Positions 12,617-62,061 of a stretch of DNA of 64,000 bases are shown here, one piece after another. Location of the stretch: positions 197 through 64,196 of the forward strand of contig JACQBK010000044.1 in assembly GCA_016194505.1 (NCBI GenBank), read 5' to 3'. The translations under genes were made by a program, and so were the position numbers. How positions within the stretch are numbered: position 1 is the first letter of the stretch; the number at the start of each line of letters is the position of its first letter. The stretch is from Ignavibacteriales bacterium. GTDB taxonomy: Bacteria; Bacteroidota; Ignavibacteria; UBA10030. Below the pieces are notes generated by a model, which saw only the letters and a program-made list of their open reading frames with translations, did no database searches and was not told the DNA's origin.

Positions 12617-12713
12617 AGTTATCTCCTCTCAAATGAGCCAAAGGCTCATCCCGCGAATGCGGGACAAGTTGTGCCTACGGCGCACAGTTGTGGTTTGTTT
12701 AAAAAGACTACTT

Positions 12714-12850
12714 GAGACCTCTGAATGATTAAATTAACTGTCACGGTGAGCGCCTGCCTGCCGCAGGCAGGGAGTCGAACCGTGATTTTGGATTAAATTC
12801 GCCCCTCGACTCCGCTCGGGGTGACGAATTTAGAATATTTCAGAGGTCTC
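12714..12850. repeat. Fold-back MITE-like element with perfect 12-bp TIR (gagacctctgaa / ttcagaggtctc) enclosing the 19-bp palindrome cctgcctgccgcaggcagg (12753-12771)
   Basis: Inverted termini at 12714-12725 and 12839-12850. The internal modules 'gtcacggtgagcgcctgcctgc..' and 'gtcaccccgagcgg' are shared with the element at 28217-28334. Confidence 0.6.
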
Positions 12851-12866
12851 TATTAGCTTCTTCACC

Positions 12867-19185: not shown

Positions 19186-20058
19186 CTATTCAACGGTCTT
19201 AAAGATTTTCTTTTGAATTTCTCTTCCGGTTTTCGTGTTCGCAAGCCCACCCTGCGCTGATTCTTTCAATTTCGGAGACATCAAATCGCCCACTTCTTTT
19301 GTTGCAAAAATAACTTCATCGGCGGGAATGAGGCTTTGGATTCCTGCTAACGCCATTTGTGAAGAAACGAACGCATTCGCAACGCCCACAGCGTTGCGGG
19401 TCGTGCAAGGCTCTTCCACCAAACCACCGACAGGATCGCATACTAATCCCATAGACGCTTTGAGCGCAAACCCAACCGCTTCGAGAATTTGTTCTTCGTT
19501 CCCTCCAAGCAAGTATGTTATCGAAGCCGCCGCCATTGCCGCGGCGCTTCCGGTTTCGCCCATACAGCCTGCTTCCGATCCGGCAAACGAAGAATTCTTC
19601 GCAAAGATAAGTCCGATAGCGGATGAGACGAGAAGCGCATCAAGGATTCGTTCACGGGGAATTTTATGCTCTTCCATCATCGTTACCAACACGGCGGGCA
19701 TAATGCCGGCAGAGCCGGCAGTTGGCGCCGCGGCAATTTTACCCATGCAGGCATTCACTTCTCCAACGGCAATGGCGCGAGCCGTGGCTTTCTTTAATGA
19801 AGCTCCAAGAGTTTCAATAGGTGCGTTGTACACTTGCTTCGCCCAATTATTCAGCATACCGCTTGGCGAAATCACTTGTTGCGTCAATCCTTGGTCAACC
19901 GAGTCTTCCATGACAAGCAACACGCGCATGAGACCGTCATAAACTTGTTCGCGCGTTAGATGCTTGTTGCGCATTTCATAATCCACCATTGCTTGCGCCA
20001 TGTCTTTCTTTTCGCGCTTGCAATATTCTACGATGTCGGAAAGTAGACTAAATTCCAT
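19186..20058 (-). CDS. sdaAA: L-serine dehydratase (Fe-S dependent), alpha subunit
   Basis: 290 aa with conserved Cys ligands (..CMGKIAAAP.., ..GCMGETGSAA..), typical of SdaAA. Confidence 0.9.
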   Translation of the reverse strand: MEFSLLSDIVEYCKREKKDMAQAMVDYEMRNKHLTREQVYDGLMRVLLVMEDSVDQGLTQQVISPSGMLNNWAKQVYNAPIETLGASLKKATARAIAVGEVNACMGKIAAAPTAGSAGIMPAVLVTMMEEHKIPRERILDALLVSSAIGLIFAKNSSFAGSEAGCMGETGSAAAMAAASITYLLGGNEEQILEAVGFALKASMGLVCDPVGGLVEEPCTTRNAVGVANAFVSSQMALAGIQSLIPADEVIFATKEVGDLMSPKLKESAQGGLANTKTGREIQKKIFKTVE

Positions 20059-20087
20059 AGTTGTCTCTCAAGCCATCTTCGTTAGTG

Positions 20088-20250
20088 TGAGGGGGCTAAA
20101 GCCCTTATTTCTTTTGGGTGTTGTTCCACCCCGACCTATCCCGCCATGCCTGCGGCAGGCAGGTTGTACGGGATGCTGAAAAACGCAAAGGTCGGGGTTA
20201 TTACGATACCTCTCCAGCCATAGTTATAACCCCGCCCTTTAGGGCGTGGG
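20088..20250. repeat. Mosaic palindromic repeat element inserted between sdaAB and sdaAA
   Basis: Components: hairpin gggctaaagccc (20093-20104); a long nested hairpin ccccgacct-atcccg-..gcctgcggcaggc..-cgggat-..-aggtcgggg (20129-20197); 'ttataaccccgccctttagggcg' (20224-20248). Modules are shared with the element at 34605-34854. Confidence 0.6.
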
Positions 20251-20328
20251 CACAATCGAGTACAATTCGGGTTTCAACCCTGAAAAAACCTGCCAAAAAT
20301 CATTTTTGAGATGGTTTCTACGTATACT

Positions 20329-21024
20329 TTACTTTTCATACCGCGAGCTTCCTTCAAGCATCGGCTCGACAAGCCGGACAAACTTCACCCAAGAAAAGTT
20401 TTTTATTTCCTTTAATGTATCGTCATCAAGAGCCTGGTCAAGCTCGATCACCATATTTGCGATGTTTTCCATGCGCGAGACGAACATATTGGCGATGTTC
20501 ACTTGCCGCTGGGCTATCGCCCCGCTGATATGCTGAATGCTTCCCGGAACATCGTCCGCGATAATAACGACTGTATGGGTCTGCGCATTAAAATCTACCG
20601 GAAACCCTTCAATCTCCTGAATTTTTATCCTTCCCCCTCCTAACGACGCGCCAACGACTTCCACCGTGCCGCCGTTTTTTGCAAACAATTTGATACGTGC
20701 CGTATTCGAATGGAATCTTACAAAATCTCCAACGAACTTGAACTCCCACTCCAAACCTGCTTTCTTTGCAAGCTCCGGCGATTGACGAATCCGCTCGTCG
20801 TCAGGACCAAATCCCAAAATGCCCCCGATGATCGCTTTGTCGGTTCCATGCCCTTTGTGAGTCTTAGCAAAGGAATTGTAGAGAGTGATAATTGCCTTTT
20901 TAGGCTCATCGTGCAGTAACTGCCGCGCAACATACCCAATGCGGCTGGCGCCCGCTGTGTGTGAGCTCGAAGGTCCGATCATAATCGGACCAAGAATGTC
21001 AAACAGTGATGGTTGTTCTGTCAT
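20329..21024 (-). CDS. sdaAB: L-serine dehydratase, beta subunit (with ACT-like domain)
   Basis: N-terminal IGPSSSHTAG motif. 231 aa. Lies upstream of sdaAA. Confidence 0.85.
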   Translation of the reverse strand: MTEQPSLFDILGPIMIGPSSSHTAGASRIGYVARQLLHDEPKKAIITLYNSFAKTHKGHGTDKAIIGGILGFGPDDERIRQSPELAKKAGLEWEFKFVGDFVRFHSNTARIKLFAKNGGTVEVVGASLGGGRIKIQEIEGFPVDFNAQTHTVVIIADDVPGSIQHISGAIAQRQVNIANMFVSRMENIANMVIELDQALDDDTLKEIKNFSWVKFVRLVEPMLEGSSRYEK

Positions 21025-22481: not shown

Positions 22482-22649
22482 CACCTGAAAAATAGATATA
22501 GTATGTATTTGCGAGGAGCTTGCCCGCCGTGGCGGGCGACGAAGCCTGTCCGCCGACAGGCGGGCAATCTCTCAATCAAAGGACAAATGGGATTGCTTCG
22601 TCGTCCTTTCAGGGCTCCTCGCAATGACTTTTTGTAAGTTACTCTAATC
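22482..22649. repeat. Degenerate copy of the MITE-like fold-back element family (opposite orientation to the 61906-62061 copy)
   Basis: The internal 38-nt block ggattgcttcgtcgtcctttcagg(g)ctcctcgcaatgac matches the reverse complement of 61930-61970. Ends are degenerate TIR-like (cacctgaaaaatagatata / ctttttgtaagttactctaatc). Long-range pairing ttgcgaggagc/gctcctcgcaa. Confidence 0.55.
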
Positions 22650-27278: not shown

Positions 27279-28199
27279 ATGATCGGACTTTTCAAAATAT
27301 TTGACGCTCACGTCCATTTTTATTCGAATTCCTATTTCCGTTTTCTTGTAAAGCAGAAAACGAACAGGCTTGATATTAACACGGAGCTGCGAAATCTTGC
27401 GGCGAAAGGGCATATTGAAATTCCCGGCGAAGACCCAGTTCAGCTTGCGAAGCGCTGGGTAGAAATTATTGATAAATGGAAAATCGAGCGGCTTCTTCTG
27501 TTCGGCAGTATGCCCGGTGACGAGGATTCCATCGTCAAAGCAGTGCAGGCGTTTCCTACGCGACTTTCCGGATTCTTTACGGTGGACCCTAACTCCAACG
27601 TTCTTATGGAAAATGCTGAGAAGCGTTTGAAACAAGATAAACTGCGCGGCATCCTCCTCTATCCCTCACTGTATCAAATCAGTGTTAACGATCCATGGCT
27701 TTATCCTCTGTACGATTTAATTCAGGAGACAAAATCCATTGTCTTCACGCAATTTGGCAAATTGGTCTTGAAGCCGCGGGAGTACGCTTCAATCCCTACA
27801 ATCGTAAACGAAGAATTTGCCAACCCCAAAGACCTTATCCCCGTCGCTAAAAAGTATCCCGGCATTAGATTTATTATTCCGCACTTCGGGGCTGGGCGAT
27901 TTGAGGAAACGTTAGAGGTTGGTAAAGAATGTCCCAATGTGTATGTGGATACCGCCGGCTCGAACTCGTGGATGGCAACCCATCCCACGAAGCTGGATCT
28001 ACGACAAGCGCTCCAAAAAACGCTTGCTGCGTTTGGCACGGGAAGAGTTTTGTTCGGCTCCGATTCCGGTATGTTTCCCCGCGGTTACCGCTATGATATT
28101 GTGGATAATCAAACCAAACTCGCGCAAGAGATGCGCCTTCCCCTCTCTGACTCAAAAAAAATTTTCTACGAAAATATAGCCGGGCTGATTGACGGCTAA
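27279..28199 (+). CDS. Amidohydrolase-2 (TIM-barrel metal-dependent hydrolase) family protein, 306 aa
   Basis: N-terminal DAHVHFY (HxH metal motif). Size is typical of the amidohydrolase_2 family. Embedded in the mqn cluster. Confidence 0.65.
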   Translation: MIGLFKIFDAHVHFYSNSYFRFLVKQKTNRLDINTELRNLAAKGHIEIPGEDPVQLAKRWVEIIDKWKIERLLLFGSMPGDEDSIVKAVQAFPTRLSGFFTVDPNSNVLMENAEKRLKQDKLRGILLYPSLYQISVNDPWLYPLYDLIQETKSIVFTQFGKLVLKPREYASIPTIVNEEFANPKDLIPVAKKYPGIRFIIPHFGAGRFEETLEVGKECPNVYVDTAGSNSWMATHPTKLDLRQALQKTLAAFGTGRVLFGSDSGMFPRGYRYDIVDNQTKLAQEMRLPLSDSKKIFYENIAGLIDG

Positions 28200-28216: not shown

Positions 28217-28334
28217 AGTATCTCAAAAATGGGTTCTCAAAAGCAAAGTCACCCCGAGCGCCTGCCTGCCGGCAGGCGCTCACCATGACGGCGGGACTCA
28301 GTCTGACGGTCTTTTTTGGTATTTTTGAGATACT
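28217..28334. repeat. MITE-like fold-back element, 14-bp perfect TIR agtatctcaaaaat / atttttgagatact
   Basis: Termini at 28217-28230 and 28321-28334. The interior carries the gagcgcc-tgcctgccggcagg-cgctc palindrome (28255-28281). Confidence 0.65.
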
Positions 28335-28344
28335 TTTACTTGCT

Positions 28345-28875
28345 TTAAATCCCTAAAAATTTTAAGAATATCATAATCAACGCCAACGGATTCAACTGAT
28401 AAGGAAGGGCAGGAATGCCATTCACGTTGTATGGCATGCCGGTTAATTTGGGGTCTTCGTGAGTCTTCAATCCGCCATAATCCCATTTCGGCAAATGAGA
28501 AGCAAACTCCTGCCGTAACGCAAAGCTGAGTGAATCCTCTTTCAGAGCGCCTTGGATGATGGCTTCCCTTAGCAAAATGCCTTTCAATTCAGGATGCAAT
28601 TGCGCTAACGAATCAATGGTTTCAAGTCTCAAAATTTGGGAAAGTGGTGTTGTGCTGATGTTCGGCGGGCGTAGAAGCCGTAATAAAAGCTGGGATTGTT
28701 GACGCTGAATTTCTTGAAATTGTATTTTAAATTGTGAATCAGGAGCGGTTATATTTCGTTTCGGTCGGAGTGTGTTTTGAGCAAAGGACAATGATATGAT
28801 AAATTGAGAACACAAAATAAAAAAAACTATAACCTGCATTATTTGTTTTGAAAATGCATATAAAAGTTTTTGCAT
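28345..28875 (-). CDS. Hypothetical secreted protein (signal peptide), unknown function
   Basis: Hydrophobic N-terminus IMQVIVFFILCSQFIISLSFAQ; no motif recognised. Low codon-level confidence. Confidence 0.3.
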   Translation of the reverse strand: MQKLLYAFSKQIMQVIVFFILCSQFIISLSFAQNTLRPKRNITAPDSQFKIQFQEIQRQQSQLLLRLLRPPNISTTPLSQILRLETIDSLAQLHPELKGILLREAIIQGALKEDSLSFALRQEFASHLPKWDYGGLKTHEDPKLTGMPYNVNGIPALPYQLNPLALIMIFLKFLGI

Positions 28876-28891: not shown

Positions 28892-30013
28892 CTATGCGGC
28901 AACTTCAACAGGTTTGTACACTTTCAGAATATCGTACAACGTTGTGCGTTGCGCGGCGGCAAACCCGGACTCGTGAATAAGCTGGATGCACTCCTCTATA
29001 TTCGTTTTGTTCACAAAATTTGCGGCGGCATGGACGTTTTCCTCCAACAATGTTCCGCCGAAATCATCCGCGCCGAAATGGAGGGCGATTTGTCCCGTTT
29101 TCTTCCCTTCCGAAAACCATGAAGCCTGAATGTGCGGAACATTATCCAGATACATTCGGGAGAAGGCAATCATTTGCAAATACCGCGTTGGCGTGGCGTA
29201 ATGGGGAATGATTTTTTCCAGAGGAGTATTGCCCGGCTTAAATGACCACGGGACGAATGCGGTAAAACCGCCCGTCTCATCTTGGAGCCTGCGCACACTT
29301 TCGAGATGCTCGACTATATCTTCATCCGTTTCGAGATGACCGTACATCATCGTTGCCGTTGATTTGTAGCCAATCACATGGGCTTCGCGCATAACGTTTA
29401 GCCAATCAGCCGAAGTTCCTTTTTTGTTGCTGATTTTTTTCTTCACACGGTCCGAAAGAATCTCCGCCCCTCCCCCCGGTATCGAACGCAAGCCGGCATC
29501 ATATAACTGTTTGAGAACCTCGCGAATCGTCAAGCCCGAAACTTGTGCCATCCCGATAATTTCCGATGTCGAAAAAAAGTGAGGATAAATTTGCGGAACC
29601 TCCGCCACTGTGCGCTTCACCATGTCCACATAATACTCAAATGGCAGAGCAGGATTAACCCCACCCTGCAGCAATACTGTCGTAACGCCTTTCGCAGCCG
29701 CTTCCTTGAACTTCTGAATCATATGGTCAATACTGTAGGTGTACTCCCCTTCTTCTCCAGGATGGCGATAGAATGCGCAAAAAATACAATCAATGTTGCA
29801 GATGTTTGTATAGTTGGGGTTGGTATCAAGGACAAATGTTATCTGCTGTAGAGGATTCTTTTTAAAACGAATCTCATTTGCAAGGTCGCCTAAATCCAAT
29901 AATTCCGCATTGCGAAGAATAAACACTCCTTCTTCCGGAGTAATCCGTTTGCCTGATCTGATGTTCTGAAAAAGTTTTTCTAACGTCATTCGTTCCTCAA
30001 TAAGCATCATCAC
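28892..30013 (-). CDS. mqnC: Radical SAM menaquinone biosynthesis enzyme of the MqnC/MqnE family (probably cyclic dehypoxanthine futalosine synthase MqnC)
   Basis: CNIDCIFCAF (Cx3Cx2C). 373 aa. High similarity in layout to the N-terminal half of the neighbouring 622-aa rSAM-MqnA fusion. Confidence 0.65.
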   Translation of the reverse strand: MMMLIEERMTLEKLFQNIRSGKRITPEEGVFILRNAELLDLGDLANEIRFKKNPLQQITFVLDTNPNYTNICNIDCIFCAFYRHPGEEGEYTYSIDHMIQKFKEAAAKGVTTVLLQGGVNPALPFEYYVDMVKRTVAEVPQIYPHFFSTSEIIGMAQVSGLTIREVLKQLYDAGLRSIPGGGAEILSDRVKKKISNKKGTSADWLNVMREAHVIGYKSTATMMYGHLETDEDIVEHLESVRRLQDETGGFTAFVPWSFKPGNTPLEKIIPHYATPTRYLQMIAFSRMYLDNVPHIQASWFSEGKKTGQIALHFGADDFGGTLLEENVHAAANFVNKTNIEECIQLIHESGFAAAQRTTLYDILKVYKPVEVAA

Positions 30014-30282
30014 AACGAAATAGTATAACCCGCCGCTTTAAGGTCTTTCATAATCGCCAAGCTTGCTTCTTCGAGTTTCACAACAATTGGCCGTATAATA
30101 ACGCCCGGAATATTCTTGGGCACAGCGACATCGCTCATGTGCAGAGCGCAGACATTATTTTTACCAAGTTTGCCGCCAAAATGCCCCAATTCAAACATCG
30201 CGTACGCAAGATCAGCGAAATTAAATATGAAGAAAGCATATTTGGCTTCGGAATTAAATTCTAAATGCTCCAAATCAATCAT
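30010..30282 (-). CDS. Hypothetical small protein (90 aa); may be the C-terminal part of a disrupted gene
   Basis: ORF only, no recognised motif. It is in a different frame from the upstream 152-aa ORF. Confidence 0.25.
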   Translation of the reverse strand: MIDLEHLEFNSEAKYAFFIFNFADLAYAMFELGHFGGKLGKNNVCALHMSDVAVPKNIPGVIIRPIVVKLEEASLAIMKDLKAAGYTISL

Positions 30283-30319
30283 TTCTCCATGCTGCCTGTC
30301 TATCGGTATTTCTTCAAGA

Positions 30320-30778
30320 TTAATCTCGGCAAGAAATTGCGTGAGCTGCGGGCTGAAGTGCAGGTTGAACGGCAGGTTTCGGAGGCGGTTTCAGCACTCG
30401 AGCTCCACCTGCGGCAGGCGCTTGCGCAACAGGTTGCGGCGCGGCTTCAACAACCAGCGGGGGTGCCGGGGCGGGAGCTTCCGTCGCCAACTCCGGTGAA
30501 GTCTTTAATTTCTCATAAAGCTCTTTGACGCTGACAAGAATAAGCTGTGCGGATACTTGGAAAAAAAAAGCGCCGTTGACATCGCCTAAAACTTTATTTT
30601 TGTAGGGAACCCCGATCGGGCCTGCTTGCTCCAATGTTTCGAGGCAAGCTTTCCGCCATTCCAAATATTTATTTTGGAGCCGCGCGTTATACCCTGAGAA
30701 CTCAAATCCACCAAGCGGGACAAGCTGAGTTCCCGTTGTAACAAGCTGCTCTAATGTTTGCACAAGATTATTCGACAT
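30320..30778 (-). CDS. Hypothetical protein with Pro/Ala-rich C-terminal tail (152 aa)
   Basis: ORF only. The last ~60 codons come from a GC-rich tract (30340-30480) that is open in several frames. Confidence 0.25.
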   Translation of the reverse strand: MSNNLVQTLEQLVTTGTQLVPLGGFEFSGYNARLQNKYLEWRKACLETLEQAGPIGVPYKNKVLGDVNGAFFFQVSAQLILVSVKELYEKLKTSPELATEAPAPAPPLVVEAAPQPVAQAPAAGGARVLKPPPKPAVQPALQPAAHAISCRD

Positions 30779-34604: not shown

Positions 34605-34854
34605 TTAGAAGCTATCTCAAAAAAATGCGCTAATAGTATTTTAAACGGGTTTGCGCTCGATGCGCACTTTTGCGCCATCTTTTGGGCGCATCCCTGCCTG
34701 CGACAGGCAGGCGCCTTCGGCGGAAAAACCCGTAATATTATTTTAACTTTTTGTCCACGTCCTAAAGGACGTGGTTATAACCCCGACCTTCAGGTCGGGG
34801 GAGAAGAAGAAAAAAGCAAGGGCTTTAGCCCTGATCAACAAAGATAGTTCTAAG
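34605..34854. repeat. Composite MITE-like element between the ubiD-like and ubiX-like genes
   Basis: Left TIR ttagaagctatctcaaaaaaa (34605-34625), identical over 19 nt to the TIR of the 61906-62061 copy. Degenerate right end gatagttctaag (34843-34854). Internal hairpins: cctgcctgcgacaggcagg (34693-34711), ccacgtcctaaaggacgtgg (34755-34774), ttataaccccgaccttcaggtcgggg (34775-34800), gggctttagccc (34820-34831). Confidence 0.6.
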
Positions 34855-43347: not shown

Positions 43348-43382
43348 GAGCCAAAGGCTCACCCCTGCCTGCGGCAGGCAAG
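43348..43382. repeat. Palindromic repeat module: gagccaaaggctc hairpin plus cctgcctgcggcaggcaag palindrome
   Basis: The same two modules occur at 12635-12647 and in the other cctgcctgc..gcaggcagg sites. Confidence 0.55.
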
Positions 43383-55158: not shown

Positions 55159-57699
55159 TTAAAATTCCAGACGTAATCCAATGCGTGTGCGGCGCGGGTC
55201 GTAATATGCGCTCGGATCGGAAAGCTCGCCGCCCACTCTCCCGCTTGAATCAATCCAGCGAATATTTTTAGTATTCAGAAGATTCCTAATATCGGCATAG
55301 ACCGTAAAAACATACCGTCCAGCTTCATCCAAAACCATTTGTTTGGATACTTTTAAATTCACAAATGTGACATTTTCCATGCGCGCATTGTTGGGCAAGA
55401 ACGCTTTCCCAGGATCAATTGGCGTAAAACCATCTCGTGTCGGATAAAGAGTATATGGACGCGGTGAATTATACAAAACGATAAGATTCGATTGAATATC
55501 GTAAGGCAATTTAAAATCAAGGTCAAGCTTGATGGTATGGCGTTGATCCCAGCTTAAGGGGTAGGGCTTTGCCGCAAGCGGGAATCCCCACTGAGCATAG
55601 TTTATCGTCTGATCAACATATTCACTGACGCCTTCCGTTATCATATACGAGTATGAAATACTGCCGGATAGCCGCTCGTCCCGCTCTCTGCTCAAAACAA
55701 ACTCCAATCCTGAAGCCTCTGCCTCCGCGTTATTGACATACGACGCAAACCCATAATCCCCCGCGGATTTGCTATCGAAGGGAATAAGTGTTTTTGAATC
55801 AATCTGGTTCTTGAACGATTTGCTAAAATATGTCAACGAAGCAACCATGTTTTCATTGATACCATGCTTGAAACCCAATTCCCAAGCAACCGTCCGCTCA
55901 GGATCCAAATCGGGATTTCCCGTCAAGACATTGCGCGCACCTTGTCGCAATTGAGCAGGATTGATGCCGGAGTATAAATAATCAAACAAAGGGAATTGAA
56001 AATAATGTCCGAAATTAGCAAAGAAAAAACTCGATGGACCAACCGGAGCCGCAATACTTATACGGGGACTGAGTTGTTGCTTAAATCTTGCTTTCACCCT
56101 TCCGGTAACCTGTTGCTTGAATTCAGTTTGGCTTACCGGTACATATTCGACAATGGGGCGCTCGGCTGTAGGATCAAGGAAATCCCAACGCAGACCGACA
56201 CTAAAATTGGAGCCGTCGCGTACCAATTCCACTTTATCTTGAATATAGATACTCCCCGACCGTGGAAAATATTTATAGGTATTGCTAAAATTCAGTAACG
56301 GAGCCTCGGTGATGGGTTTGCCGAAATACGTCGTTTGCGGCTCATATTTTACCAGATCAGAATAGATACTGTATTGGTTCACCTCTACGCCAACCCGGAG
56401 AAGGTGAATCTTCTCGTATTGCGTTGTGTAATCTCCCTTCAATGCATAAATGGTTTGCTTCGTTTCCGCCCACCAATTTCGCTGACCGTTGACAATATAG
56501 CGCAGGTAAAAATCATATTCGAACGGATACAACGATAAATCCTCTTTTGCTCCATCACCAATTCTCGAATGCTGATAAAATGCGCTGAGACTTAATGAGT
56601 AGAACGAGCTTTGTGAAAGCGTTTGCGAGAGAATGACGGCACCTCGCACCGCATCCCGCGAGCGAAGAGGTAGACCATTCAAATTGAACCGCCAGCTGAA
56701 TTCATAATCGTGCCATTTTCTCAACGAATAAATGCCTTGGGCACTTATTTTGAACGTCGGTGAATACAGATAATCTAATTTCGCAAAGCCCGTCAACTCT
56801 TGACTTACGGGTGATGAGAAGAAATTTTGAAAATCCTGCCACCAGCGCGTATCGCTCATGATATACGTATTTGCTGTAAAATAATAAAGCTCGCCGGGTA
56901 CAATAGGTCCGCTGGCAGAAGCTTCTATTTCCGTTGACCGATCCTGCTGTTTATTGGTACTGCTGGGCAACCAGCTATCTCTATCCACTCGCACCGCAAA
57001 CAGGTGCTTGTTGCCTCCGCTTTTGGTAATGACATTGACGACACCGGACATTGCGTTGCCGTATTCAGCATCGAACCCACCCGTCTGGATGGTCATGCCG
57101 GTAATGGAGCTTTTCGGAAGATTCGTTCCAACCCCGCCTCCGATGACATCTTGCACCGGAAGTCCATCCACTAGAAAGACAACTTCGTTCGTTTTTCCGC
57201 CGCGCACGTTTCCTTCGATCGTCGTTCCCGGCAGTAATCCGAGAACTTCTTTGAATGAGGAAACCGGCAGTTTTTCGAGCTTGATTTCACCGATAGAATA
57301 AGCCGTTGCGGCGAGATCTTTTTGTATCAGGGGGCGCTCGGCACGGACTTCGACCGCCTCCAACTCTACCGAGGATTGCTCCAAATCAAGGTCAATGCGG
57401 GTACGGAGATCCGGCAGAATGGTAACCTTCTTCATTATAACAGTTTTATAGCCTACCATGCTGAAACGAACATCATAGACACCTGCCCGTAAATTGCTTA
57501 CGCGATACACACCATCGGCATCAGTTATTGATCCGTATTGTGTGCCAACAATTGCGATATTGACTCCGATGAGATTTTCTTTGGTCTGCTTATCCCGTAT
57601 CCTTCCTTCAAGGATACCGGTGGTTCCCCGCCATGGGGTGGCGGAAGCTTCTCCACACAACAAAACTACGATTGCTAGGAGGGTGGCAATGTGTTTCAT
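55159..57699 (-). CDS. TonB-dependent outer-membrane receptor with CarboxypepD_reg-like N-domain, 846 aa
   Basis: Signal peptide, CarboxypepD_reg (GRIRDKQTKENLIGVNIAIVG), plug, and a barrel ending ..IGLRLEF. Confidence 0.9.
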   Translation of the reverse strand: MKHIATLLAIVVLLCGEASATPWRGTTGILEGRIRDKQTKENLIGVNIAIVGTQYGSITDADGVYRVSNLRAGVYDVRFSMVGYKTVIMKKVTILPDLRTRIDLDLEQSSVELEAVEVRAERPLIQKDLAATAYSIGEIKLEKLPVSSFKEVLGLLPGTTIEGNVRGGKTNEVVFLVDGLPVQDVIGGGVGTNLPKSSITGMTIQTGGFDAEYGNAMSGVVNVITKSGGNKHLFAVRVDRDSWLPSSTNKQQDRSTEIEASASGPIVPGELYYFTANTYIMSDTRWWQDFQNFFSSPVSQELTGFAKLDYLYSPTFKISAQGIYSLRKWHDYEFSWRFNLNGLPLRSRDAVRGAVILSQTLSQSSFYSLSLSAFYQHSRIGDGAKEDLSLYPFEYDFYLRYIVNGQRNWWAETKQTIYALKGDYTTQYEKIHLLRVGVEVNQYSIYSDLVKYEPQTTYFGKPITEAPLLNFSNTYKYFPRSGSIYIQDKVELVRDGSNFSVGLRWDFLDPTAERPIVEYVPVSQTEFKQQVTGRVKARFKQQLSPRISIAAPVGPSSFFFANFGHYFQFPLFDYLYSGINPAQLRQGARNVLTGNPDLDPERTVAWELGFKHGINENMVASLTYFSKSFKNQIDSKTLIPFDSKSAGDYGFASYVNNAEAEASGLEFVLSRERDERLSGSISYSYMITEGVSEYVDQTINYAQWGFPLAAKPYPLSWDQRHTIKLDLDFKLPYDIQSNLIVLYNSPRPYTLYPTRDGFTPIDPGKAFLPNNARMENVTFVNLKVSKQMVLDEAGRYVFTVYADIRNLLNTKNIRWIDSSGRVGGELSDPSAYYDPRRTRIGLRLEF

Positions 57700-57757: not shown

Positions 57758-57917
57758 TAGAACCTATCTCAAAAATATCATACAATCTTCCAACGGTTCA
57801 AAACTTTGTACGTAGAGCGAACTTTAGTTCGCTAACCCATTTTGGCAGCTGAAGCTCGCCCTACAATGTACCCCAGCCGACAGAGGCCCTTTCTCTCTGT
57901 TTTTGAGATGGCTTCTA
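57758..57917. repeat. MITE-like fold-back element (TIR tagaacctatctcaaaaa / tttttgagatggcttcta) between paralog 1 and the TonB-dependent receptor
   Basis: TIRs at 57758-57775 and 57900-57917. Internal palindrome agcgaactttagttcgct. The right TIR abuts the stop codon of the paralog-1 gene. Confidence 0.65.
57770..57777 (-). promoter_or_regulatory. Candidate FCB-type -7 promoter box (TAnnTTTG as TATTTTTG) carried by the MITE TIR, oriented toward the TonB-dependent receptor gene
   Basis: The minus strand reads ..TTTTG-N21-TATTTTTG ~75 nt upstream of the receptor ATG (57699). The motif is intrinsic to the TIR sequence. Confidence 0.3.
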
Positions 57918-58643
57918 ATGAATAACCCCACCTTCCTGACCCGGACAACCCTCCGGATCGAAACCATCGGGGTGATAAGGTTTATGAATATTTTCCGGAT
58001 ACAAGCCACAATGTTCCGATGTCATGATCGGAGGACAACAATTGGAAGTAACATATCTACTCACGAAACAAAGCGAATACCTAACAGGTCCGAAGTACAC
58101 AGGCGCTCGCTGATCGTAAATTTTGAGTTCCCCTCTGAGAATAAAATCTTCGGTGTACGCCAAACCACGAGAGATACCATGTGTTTTTAAAATATCACAA
58201 GTTGAATCCACGATATACCGAAAGAATTGAGTCCGAAGGTCTTTACCATTATCATCCGCCTTAAAATCCCACTGGATGCCGAGACGAATCGTATCCTGTG
58301 GGTCAATCAAGAGCATGCCTGAGTTTCTATCATAGCCGGGAGCGCGAATAACGTTACTTGGACCGATAGCAAAGGTCTTCCTAATTGAGGGGTCGCTTAC
58401 TGAAACAATTTCAATGCTTCCTTTTAATATCCCCGGTGCCTGAAAGGTTTCGTCAAAAATGTTTCGCACAATTAATTGAACACTCATCACATTTTGAACA
58501 ACTGAAAGAATATACGAAGGCTGTATGGTGCCTTCAAATATCTTATCCGGCGCTTGGTAGGTCGGCAGTGACTCGTCGCAGGGTCCAAGCGAGAGGCTTA
58601 CGAGAGCAAGAATACAAATTAAAAATAATGTATGTCTCTGCAT
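57915..58643 (-). CDS. Secreted Cys-containing protein, paralog 1 of a tandem lineage-specific family (unknown function)
   Basis: Signal peptide MQRHTLFLICILALVSLSLG, then the conserved PCDESLPTYQAPDKIF..RNIFDETFQ..WDF..AYTED.. core. The C-terminus is extended relative to paralogs 2 and 3. Confidence 0.6.
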   Translation of the reverse strand: MQRHTLFLICILALVSLSLGPCDESLPTYQAPDKIFEGTIQPSYILSVVQNVMSVQLIVRNIFDETFQAPGILKGSIEIVSVSDPSIRKTFAIGPSNVIRAPGYDRNSGMLLIDPQDTIRLGIQWDFKADDNGKDLRTQFFRYIVDSTCDILKTHGISRGLAYTEDFILRGELKIYDQRAPVYFGPVRYSLCFVSRYVTSNCCPPIMTSEHCGLYPENIHKPYHPDGFDPEGCPGQEGGVIH

Positions 58644-58656
58644 GTTATTCTCTCCT

Positions 58657-59289
58657 TTAATGGGGATATCTAAAGGGACAATTCGCTGTAAACGGAAATG
58701 GAAGAGGAGGACATTCTTGAGGATCACCCACTATATAGCAAAAACTATGCAAAATAGGAACACCTCGTATAATACCCGTCTTCTCAAAGACCGTTATTTC
58801 TCCACTGATAATAACATCTTCCGTATAAGCTATTTTTTGTGTCCTGCATGCCGGATTCTCCCATACGCGAAAAAAATCTGTCAGGAGATTACTGCCCTTG
58901 TCGTCGGTGAAATCCCATGTCACTCCAACGCGAATGGTATCTCCCGGGTCTATTGTCAGTATGCTCGAGATGGGATTATAGTCTTTCGCCTTGATAAGAT
59001 TTGCAACGCTGAGCTTAAATGTTTTGTGAATGCTTGAGTCTCTTGCCGAAGTAATTTGGATGGTTCCGCGCAGTATGGCTTTAGATTGAATAGTTTCGTC
59101 AAAAATATTGCGCACATGTATTTGGACAAAAAAACCGTTGAGCACCTTGGTCACAACATAAGAAGACACCATCGTCGCATCAAATATTTTTTCCGGCTCT
59201 TTATATGTGGGCAATGACTCGTCGCACGGTCCGAATGAGAGACTCATGAGTGCAAGAATATAAAATAAGAATATTGTATATCGTTGCAT
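58657..59289 (-). CDS. Secreted Cys-containing protein, paralog 2
   Basis: MQRYTIFLFYILALMSLSFGPCDESLPTYKEPEKIF... ends ..ECPPLPFPFTANCPFRYPH. Confidence 0.6.
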   Translation of the reverse strand: MQRYTIFLFYILALMSLSFGPCDESLPTYKEPEKIFDATMVSSYVVTKVLNGFFVQIHVRNIFDETIQSKAILRGTIQITSARDSSIHKTFKLSVANLIKAKDYNPISSILTIDPGDTIRVGVTWDFTDDKGSNLLTDFFRVWENPACRTQKIAYTEDVIISGEITVFEKTGIIRGVPILHSFCYIVGDPQECPPLPFPFTANCPFRYPH

Positions 59290-59302
59290 GTCGTTTTCTC
59301 TT

Positions 59303-59929
59303 CTATTGAGGATATCTGAAAGGACAGTTGGCGCTAAACGGAAATGGACTACAGCTTTGGGGGTCTCCAGTGACATAACAAAAACTATGAAGGATTGGGG
59401 GAGCTTTTGTAATCCCGGTTTTTTCAAAAACTCTCATTTCTCCACTAATCATGAAATCTTCAGCATAAGCGATACTTCGTCCTTTACATTGCGGATCGGG
59501 TACAATTCGAAAAAAATCTGCTAAAAGATCTCTCCCTGTGTCATCTTTGAAATCCCACAAAACGCCCAAACGAATGGAATCTCCGGAGTTAAAGGTTAAA
59601 GTGTTTGTGACTTGATCATATCCCGGAACGTAAAGAAACAGTATTTCTGAAATGTTAAATGTTCTTTTAATACTAGGATTTCTCATCGAAGTTATTTGAA
59701 TCATGCCTTGAAAAGCGGGTTTCGCTTGAAAAGTTTCATCAAAAACATTACGTATTTTCAATTCAACAAAGAAGTTATTTCGAGTTGCCGTAACAACGTA
59801 TGATGACGCCAGCGCTGCATCAAATATTTTCTCCGGCTCTTGGTATGTGGGTAAAGATTCATCACAAGGGCCAGATGAAATGCTGAGGAGTGCTGTTAGA
59901 AGAACAGCTAGAATCGTTTGTTGTTTCAT
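59303..59929 (-). CDS. Secreted Cys-containing protein, paralog 3
   Basis: MKQQTILAVLLTALLSISSGPCDESLPTYQEPEKIF... ends ..SCSPFPFSANCPFRYPQ. Confidence 0.6.
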   Translation of the reverse strand: MKQQTILAVLLTALLSISSGPCDESLPTYQEPEKIFDAALASSYVVTATRNNFFVELKIRNVFDETFQAKPAFQGMIQITSMRNPSIKRTFNISEILFLYVPGYDQVTNTLTFNSGDSIRLGVLWDFKDDTGRDLLADFFRIVPDPQCKGRSIAYAEDFMISGEMRVFEKTGITKAPPILHSFCYVTGDPQSCSPFPFSANCPFRYPQ

Positions 59930-61905: not shown

Positions 61906-62061
61906 CTAGAAGTTATCTCAAAAACCTCGGTCCGTCGTCATTGCGAGGAGTCCTGAAAGGACGACGAAGCAATCCTATAGTTTGAAAAGAATTAAAGTTA
62001 GATTGCTTCGCAAAAAACGCTCGCAATAGCAATTTTATGTATTTTTGAGATAGCTTCTAAA
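61906..62061. repeat. Best-preserved copy of the MITE-like fold-back element family (TIR ctagaagttatctcaaaaa / tttttgagatagcttctaa)
   Basis: 19-bp TIRs at 61906-61924 and 62043-62061. Nested inverted pairs inside (cgtcgtc/gacgacg, attgcgag/ctcgcaat, gaagcaatc/gattgcttc) predict a long fold-back. Length ~156 bp. Confidence 0.7.

Follow-up and report, generated by a model that had tools for sequence, protein, structure and literature searches.

The window, by which we mean the whole 64-kb stretch of Ignavibacteriales DNA that was analysed, contains five end-bounded repeats, all of them intergenic, and a fold-back near 22.5 kb that lacks such ends. One window protein is 100% identical to MBI3586290.1 of an Ignavibacteriales MAG (metagenome-assembled genome), and the best named relatives of the lysyl-tRNA synthetase are Ignavibacteriales as well. 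Five of these six loci lie between co-directional genes on the − strand and the sixth between convergent genes. Loci and relatives from other genomes are denoted below by L numbers.

61907..62059, no strand assigned: intact MITE copy; 149 bp between flanking TAs; ends of 27.5 and 33.9 bits
57758..57917, no strand assigned: intact MITE copy; 156 bp between flanking TAs; ends of 32.1 and 32.5 bits
34606..34852, no strand assigned: MITE copy with one consensus and one variant end; 247 bp; 32 bits
20067..20320, no strand assigned: MITE copy, absent from the earlier list; ~254 bp; strong end of 30 bits
28214..28338, no strand assigned: MITE copy, end sub-variant; 125 bp; gapped scores of 24 and 29
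22505..22628, no strand assigned: end-less fold-back, not a member; without significant family end

The 18-nt family end reads TAGAAGCYATCTCAAAAA; searched as TAGAAGCTATCTCAAAAA with at most three mismatches, it has six matches in the 64 kb compared with 0.08 expected. With a position matrix trained on 126 ends from other genomes, the six window ends score 27–34 bits, while the maximum in simulated sequence is 18.5. A gapped scan brings in both ends of the copy at 28.2 kb (29 and 24; simulated maximum 22–26). The terminal repeat is thus real and far above chance. The sequence-only reading had proposed a family of fold-back, MITE-like elements with terminal inverted repeats (TIRs), and this family stands: its ends exceed chance and are of the insertion sequence (IS) type, its members measure 125–254 bp, and TA duplications as well as empty sites in relatives were found (see below). 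Four of the five copies listed by that reading are end-bounded and, as it had stated, every copy is intergenic. The copy at 20067–20320 had been overlooked, and the one listed at 22482–22649 does not belong to the family.

This latter candidate was rejected because neither of its ends rises above background in the matrix or in the gapped scan. Its presumed right end is ordinary spacer, which is conserved in the close relative L211 without the element. At 22505–22628 lies a GTATTTGCGAGG...CCTCGCAATGAC fold-back in which GC hairpins are nested. A block of 39–42 nt is all that it has in common with the 61.9 kb copy, in the interior of the latter; a 38-nt block common to both had been noticed before. 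The right arm of the fold-back is found in L209 (a 93% relative), and the fold-back is missing from L211. Similar end-less GTCA...TGAC fold-backs with GC hairpins nested in each arm lie in L208 (1686–1795) and L209 (2214–2309 and 1–30), and their positions differ among orthologous spacers, namely malQ-lysS in L208 and sdaAB-sdaAA in L209. From these arrangements the end-less fold-backs look like a separate small mobile family.

Ends, neighbours and predicted folds of the copies

The copy at 61.9 kb is flanked by malQ (stop 62086) and lysS (start 61809), both on the − strand. Its right end, TTTTTGAGATAGCTTCTA, is the near-perfect reverse complement of its left end, TAGAAGTTATCTCAAAAA, and its interior is a GTCATTGCGAGG...CTCGCAATAG fold-back. 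The predicted fold has an energy of −52.3 kcal/mol (z −5.7 compared with shuffled controls).

The copy at 57.8 kb has an interior unrelated to those of the other copies (fold z −4.4). It is located upstream of a TonB-dependent receptor gene (55159–57699) and interrupts the stop codon of gene 57915–58727 (− strand) at the TA. The stop codon of this gene now consists of TA and the first G of the element; upon excision the gene would keep a TAG stop. Since the element starts with G, a TAA or TAG stop codon whose TA serves as target becomes TAG again, which explains the earlier observation that copies sit exactly at gene ends. In the region 57915–59929, three paralogous genes without Pfam match follow one another in tandem at intervals of ~640 bp; their N-termini look like a signal peptide followed by Cys. 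The number of these paralogues varies in close relatives (2 in L205, 5 in L207).

The copy at 34.6 kb is flanked by a ubiX-like (stop 34872) and a ubiD-like (start 34574) gene, both of the − strand. Its consensus end occupies 34606–34623, and its variant end, AACAAAGATAGTTCTA at 34837–34852, pairs with the consensus end in the fold (z −7.2) around a row of GC-rich hairpins. The copy at 20.2 kb takes up the spacer that separates the serine dehydratase beta (20329–21024) and alpha (19186–20058) genes (fold z −3.8). Its consensus end is located at 20303–20320, and the other end, AAGCCATCTTCGTTAG at 20070–20085, is a variant or decayed one. Alignment of these two copies reveals a common variant second end and an adjacent GGGCTTTAGCCC module, and the two belong to one subfamily. 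The copy at 28.2 kb lies between the convergent genes 27279–28199 (+) and 28345–28875 (−) (fold z −5.4). An identical deletion of 1 nt is present in both of its ends, TACAGTATCTCAAAAAT and ATTTTTGAGATACTTTTA. Since both ends lack the same base, they represent an end sub-variant rather than random decay.

In the predicted fold of every copy the ends form a closing stem around internal hairpins. Consequently, copies that are co-transcribed with their neighbours should form long closed stem-loops, and the copies between the serine dehydratase beta and alpha genes and between ubiX and ubiD should be among them.

Insertion sites and the parent family of insertion sequences

In the malQ-lysS spacer, L205 (LysRS 95% identical) aligns at ~93% on both sides of the 61.9 kb copy. 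The empty site reads CTTATT-TA-GTATCTTAAAG in L205, and the corresponding arrangement in the window is CTTATT-TA-[149-bp element]-TA-GTATCTTAAAG; L208 is likewise empty at this TA. The 57.8 kb site is empty in L207, which has GGGGTCATTCAT-TA-AGCAAATATTTG with TAA as the stop codon, compared with TA-[156-bp element]-TA in the window. The relatives that provide these clean empty sites show 93–95% protein identity. Since a single TA in the relatives corresponds to TA-element-TA in the window, both copies are insertions with a duplicated TA. This duplication has the 2-bp length known for the IS427 group.

For the remaining three sites the flanks are too diverged to fix the exact junctions, and only spacer lengths are compared. 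The 34.6 kb spacer has 297 bp in the window and 41 element-free bp in L212, the 28.2 kb spacer 145 bp and 15 bp in L212, and the 20.2 kb spacer 270 bp and 11 bp in L211; L209 has a different fold-back at the latter position. All five sites are element-free in relatives with 90–95% protein identity. No family end was found in 61 kb of close relatives or in 717 kb of relatives with 60–83% protein identity. The latter keep the gene order malQ-lysS-paralogues-TonB receptor, with spacers too diverged to align.

Mobility of short forms is also evident in another genome. The Bacteroidetes chromosome OY970334.1 carries three copies of 216–218 bp that are ~98% identical and lie megabases apart in unrelated flanks, with homology limits exactly at TAGAAG and CTTCTA. 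Such near-identity at unrelated loci means that short forms transpose. Of the 126 ends mentioned above, 84% have a pyrimidine directly outside the TA, which gives a flank consensus of Y-TA-R and a loose W-Y-TA-R-W target.

A scan with TAGAAVYYATCTCAAAAA in one genome per species returned at least 120 loci. Among the matches listed are Desulfobacterota, Bacteroidota, Ignavibacteria, Acidobacteriota, Chloroflexota, Deinococcota and Spirochaetota, furthermore Armatimonadota, Myxococcota, several Proteobacteria and others. Family ends thus occur in isolates as well as in metagenome-assembled genomes (MAGs) of at least 10 phyla. The matches listed include 65 inverted end pairs at distances of 80–834 bp (partner end with at most three mismatches). 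The longest of these distances, 834 bp in a Truepera MAG (L060), corresponds to a complete insertion sequence in which an A6G slippery (frameshift) site links two overlapping frames; the fused product contains DUF4096 and DDE_Tnp_1 and matches NCBIfam NF033580 (IS5 family) with E 2e-70. By tblastn against plasmids we found an IS5-family element of 867 bp in Leptospira weilii (L121) with TAGAACCCATCTCAAAAA at both ends. Its transposase is 60% identical to that of L060 and its ends are essentially the same; for the transposase of IS427 (Agrobacterium) the identity is 37%. In seven further loci (L107, L027, L047, L079, L003, L043 and L123) the ends adjoin the first or last codons of this transposase gene, and these loci, which come from several phyla, include the isolates Desulfosarcina variabilis, Pontibacter mucosus, Ornatilinea apprima and Rhodothermus marinus. 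The terminal inverted repeats of the window copies are therefore equal to those of autonomous IS (L060 and L121). Members of the IS427 group measure 832–865 bp, with inverted repeats of 13–21 bp, 2-bp direct repeats and two ORFs expressed by programmed frameshifting (PMC3281130), and the full-length elements found here fit these properties.

The link to a transposase comes from the long end pairs (L060, L072) and from tblastn. Clustering of ORFs within 2.5 kb of solo ends yielded housekeeping families only and no recurrent transposase. When the joined flanks of the Leptospira IS were queried against plasmids, no empty site was found, and the literature, searched for the end, for the module sequences and for MITEs of Leptospira, gave nothing relevant and no published name for the end sequence. 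The sequence-only reading had suggested a search for a transposase whose IS ends match the TIR, and IS5-family/IS427-group elements of other genomes have such ends.

We consider it very probable that the repeats in the window are non-autonomous MITEs with ends of the IS5 family (IS427 group), which were inserted recently at intergenic TA sites. Their ends of ~16–18 bp, GAAGCYATCTCAAAAA, are flanked by TA, and in ends, size, target duplication and insertion polymorphism the elements are IS5-family-derived MITEs. As a mechanism, we propose that a transposase from a full-length IS elsewhere in the genome, present now or in the past, would bind both ends. It would then excise or copy the element and insert it at a TA within W-Y-TA-R-W, thereby duplicating the TA. 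Presumably, mobilisation occurs in trans, so that only the ends would matter and the interiors would be dispensable. Mobilisation in trans is something that we infer, since the parent IS is not seen in the 64 kb of this genome.

The repeats might instead be in-place deletion remnants of full-length IS that were never mobilised as short forms, and such derivatives do exist: L072 has 402 bp and retains N- and C-terminal pieces of the transposase, enclosed by the family ends. For the window copies, however, this origin is very unlikely. With the L060 transposase as a tblastn query against the 64-kb window, no similarity and no transposase remnant in the copies was found, which agrees with the earlier statement that the window lacks a cognate transposase. 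In addition, the interiors are hairpin mosaics unrelated to IS. The derived variant end and module shared by the 34.6 and 20.2 kb copies indicate that a short form was copied, and the three near-identical copies in OY970334.1 argue in the same direction. The sequence-only reading had named as a counter-argument that the common ends might belong to a longer known IS, and this applies only insofar as the parent IS family is now identified; the copies themselves are short derivatives and not fragments of an IS in place.

Heterogeneous interiors and alternative functions

The IS5-family-derived MITEs of the window differ considerably in what lies between their ends. Homologous internal blocks, which had been claimed for the copies in general, exist in the pairs 61.9 kb/22.5 kb and 34.6 kb/20.2 kb only; all other interiors are unrelated. 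The five copies thus have only their ends in common, unlike MITEs that spread in a classical burst from a single master. Three of the five copies have a variant or altered end and are nevertheless lineage-specific insertions; either such ends still work or these copies decayed quickly. Being lineage-specific, the five copies must all be young when measured against the ~5–10% protein divergence from the relatives. Because of this youth, the different interiors, the variant end of the 34.6 and 20.2 kb copies and the paired deletion of the 28.2 kb copy must predate insertion. These comparisons suggest that several subfamilies with the same ends must have been mobile. The extent of dispersal observed is five copies in 64 kb.

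Between their ends, the copies are assembled in mosaic fashion from small GC-rich hairpins and a GTCA...TGAC fold-back. In its internal architecture the 61.9 kb copy matches a copy from Chloroflexota (L007), i.e. end, GTCATTGCGAG...GAAGCAATC, loop, GATTGCTTCG...CTCGCAATGAC, end. A 19-nt GC-rich palindrome, CCTGCCTGCGGCAGGCAGG, occurs at 12753–12771, 20145–20163, 34693–34711 and 43364–43382, with a variant near 28262; three of the occurrences belong to different elements, and one stands by itself in a spacer. Two further modules, GGGCTTTAGCCC and TTATAACCCCGNCCTTNAGGNCGGGG, are likewise recurrent. The motif GTCAT[TC][GC][CT]GAG was considered as a ubiquitous module and dropped, since it proved scarce in the loci in a strict count. 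In the more distant relatives L134, L136 and L141, the malQ-lysS spacers are occupied by other repeat families. One type of unit in these spacers is CCCCCTCTCC...GGAGAGGG(T/G)AGGGTGAGG, and the same kind forms the interior of a MITE copy from Burkholderiales (L068 3623–3773).

A subfamily of the same MITE in Desulfobacterales allows a closer view of interior evolution. It measures 146 bp, and in an alignment of L016, L032, L036, L039, L045, L052, L067, L083, L088, L090, L106 and L118 the mean column identity across species is 86%. Longer Desulfobacterales copies (L005, L029, L031, L070 and L109) consist of the 146-bp scaffold with insertions of GC-rich hairpins of 19–48 nt at various positions, so that hairpin insertion is one route of interior diversification. 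In the 146-bp fold-back, 16 of 55 pairs show compensatory changes, compared with 8.5 ± 1.4 in shuffles and 4–6 in slid controls. These changes could result from selection on the hairpin or from conversion between the arms.

The compensatory changes bear on a second alternative, in which the elements are selected structured-RNA genes or cis-elements (small RNAs, terminators or stabilisers) and the ends are a conserved closing stem. All copies fold well below shuffled controls (z −3.8 to −7.2), and the Desulfobacterales fold-back is kept over its whole length by compensatory changes, with 57 G-U cells compared with 9 A-C cells on one strand. The G-U excess rests on about five alignment positions, however, and the Desulfobacterales copies have no clear orientation bias relative to the neighbouring genes. 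Orthologous spacers of close relatives are free of the elements, which are thus not conserved parts of the operons; moreover, the interiors are unrelated between copies and the ends are those of transposase-bearing IS. A search against Rfam 15 gave no family at gathering thresholds. The best sub-threshold match was STnc630 with 22.8 bits compared with a threshold of 55, and at relaxed thresholds STnc630 and rpfG appeared as weak matches at chance level. Scans with promoter and terminator consensus sequences found no enrichment. We therefore give selected RNA function as the origin of the elements little credence. As a speculation, the outward TTGAGA in each end may be read as a −35-like hexamer, with promoters of this lineage being non-canonical.

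A derivation from REP/REPIN palindromes moved by a RAYT (Y1, IS200/IS605-like) transposase can practically be dismissed: the elements are intergenic and palindromic with GC-rich hairpins between co-directional genes, and the end-less GTCA...TGAC class shares the same spacers, but the end-bounded copies make a 2-bp TA duplication and their terminal inverted repeats of 16–18 bp are identical to the ends of DDE-type IS5-family elements. Y1 elements of the IS200/IS605 type have no terminal inverted repeats and cause no target duplication. REP/REPIN palindromes would likewise be expected to lack ends of DDE-type IS and target duplications, both of which are present here.

Returning to the MITEs with IS427-type ends, GC-rich hairpins and GTCA...TGAC fold-backs also stand alone, in shifted positions, in orthologous spacers of close relatives. 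A rather doubtful but conceivable joint reading is that the ends serve as a reusable shell, with which several subfamilies moved within a single lineage of Ignavibacteriales in spite of entirely different interiors, and that the GC-rich hairpins and GTCA...TGAC fold-backs form a second, very small mobile layer, similar to the small dispersed repeats of cyanobacteria, that lands preferentially in MITEs and intergenic hairpins in several phyla. If this were true, the compensatory changes in Desulfobacterales would reflect selection on a hairpin of single-stranded DNA or RNA, for spread or for the host.

Known systems and relevance of the elements

Correia elements (NEMIS) of Neisseria are ~100–160 bp long, have terminal inverted repeats, duplicate TA, lie beside or between genes and form long stem-loops when co-transcribed with these. 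We know of no parent transposase for them. The window elements share the size range, the inverted repeats, the TA duplication, the gene-adjacent sites and, by prediction, the long stem-loops; in contrast, the sequences are unrelated and a parent IS family is identified for the window elements. The Chunjie MITE of Geobacter uraniireducens is inserted between operon genes without breaking coding sequences, and its copies are near-identical. The copies at 20.2 kb (serine dehydratase beta/alpha) and 34.6 kb (ubiX/ubiD) are likewise located between operon genes, but the window copies have other ends and another parent IS, and nothing except the ends is common to them. For cyanobacteria, small dispersed repeats (SDR) were reportedly described by Elhai et al. 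in 2008 (cited in PMC3116915). They resemble the interior modules only, which are GC-rich hairpins of ~20–45 nt nested in MITEs or located elsewhere in spacers. These SDR-like modules are not part of the definition of the end-bounded family.

Compared with IS427, IS1248 and ISPpa2 of the IS427 group (PMC3281130), the window elements have ends that belong to the clade and the 2-bp direct repeat, but they are non-coding and of only 125–254 bp. The end TAGAAGCYATCTCAAAAA marks a sub-clade (Truepera, Leptospira, Pontibacter, Ornatilinea, Desulfosarcina and others) and not IS427 itself. IS5-family-derived MITEs have been described as ATR of Neisseria (ISNme1 ends) and as BrickBuilt/MITE-PgRS of Porphyromonas gingivalis (ISPg1/ISPg9 ends) (PMC4596501). 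They are also short, non-coding and intergenic and have only the terminal inverted repeats in common with IS5-family IS; their end, however, is GAGACCTTTGCAAAA (PMC4596501). Unlike ATR and BrickBuilt, the present family is found in numerous phyla, and a single genome contains far more diverse interiors. ATR and BrickBuilt are the nearest described analogues, and Correia and Chunjie are close by behaviour.

A single fold-back at 12708–12856 (fold z −7.1) has a perfect 12-nt inverted end, GAGACCTCTGAA, at 12714–12725 and 12839–12850, and an interior with the same kind of GC hairpins as the MITE copies. This end resembles the IS5 ends of the ISNme1/ISPg1 type, GAGACCTTTGCAAAA (PMC4596501), and is closer to the ATR/BrickBuilt type. 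No second copy of the element was found in the window or among the 204 loci examined.

With these results, a set of intergenic repeats in the genome of an uncultured member of the Ignavibacteriales is explained, and rules for annotation follow from the ends, from the duplicated TA and from the clade of the parent IS. Since the same ends occur in at least 10 phyla, a single end profile could flag this clade of MITEs and IS widely. Such a profile could also avert spurious 'hypothetical protein' calls and explain some contig breaks. The copies inside coupled gene pairs (serine dehydratase beta/alpha, ubiX/ubiD and malQ-lysS) and the one in a stop codon are natural test cases for how stem-loops in operons relate to read-through and mRNA stability. 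Otherwise, the biology is that expected for bacterial MITEs, i.e. well-documented, ordinary mobile DNA; the heterogeneous interiors and the nested small hairpins might be the only parts that lead somewhere new.

Apart from the repeats, a CAP12/PCTIR TIR-domain gene at 30010–30778 seems to be interrupted: residues 1–97 and 172–284 match separately and the middle is missing. In relatives, the gene is intact beside mqnE (L212 6138–6989 and L213 1990–2826).
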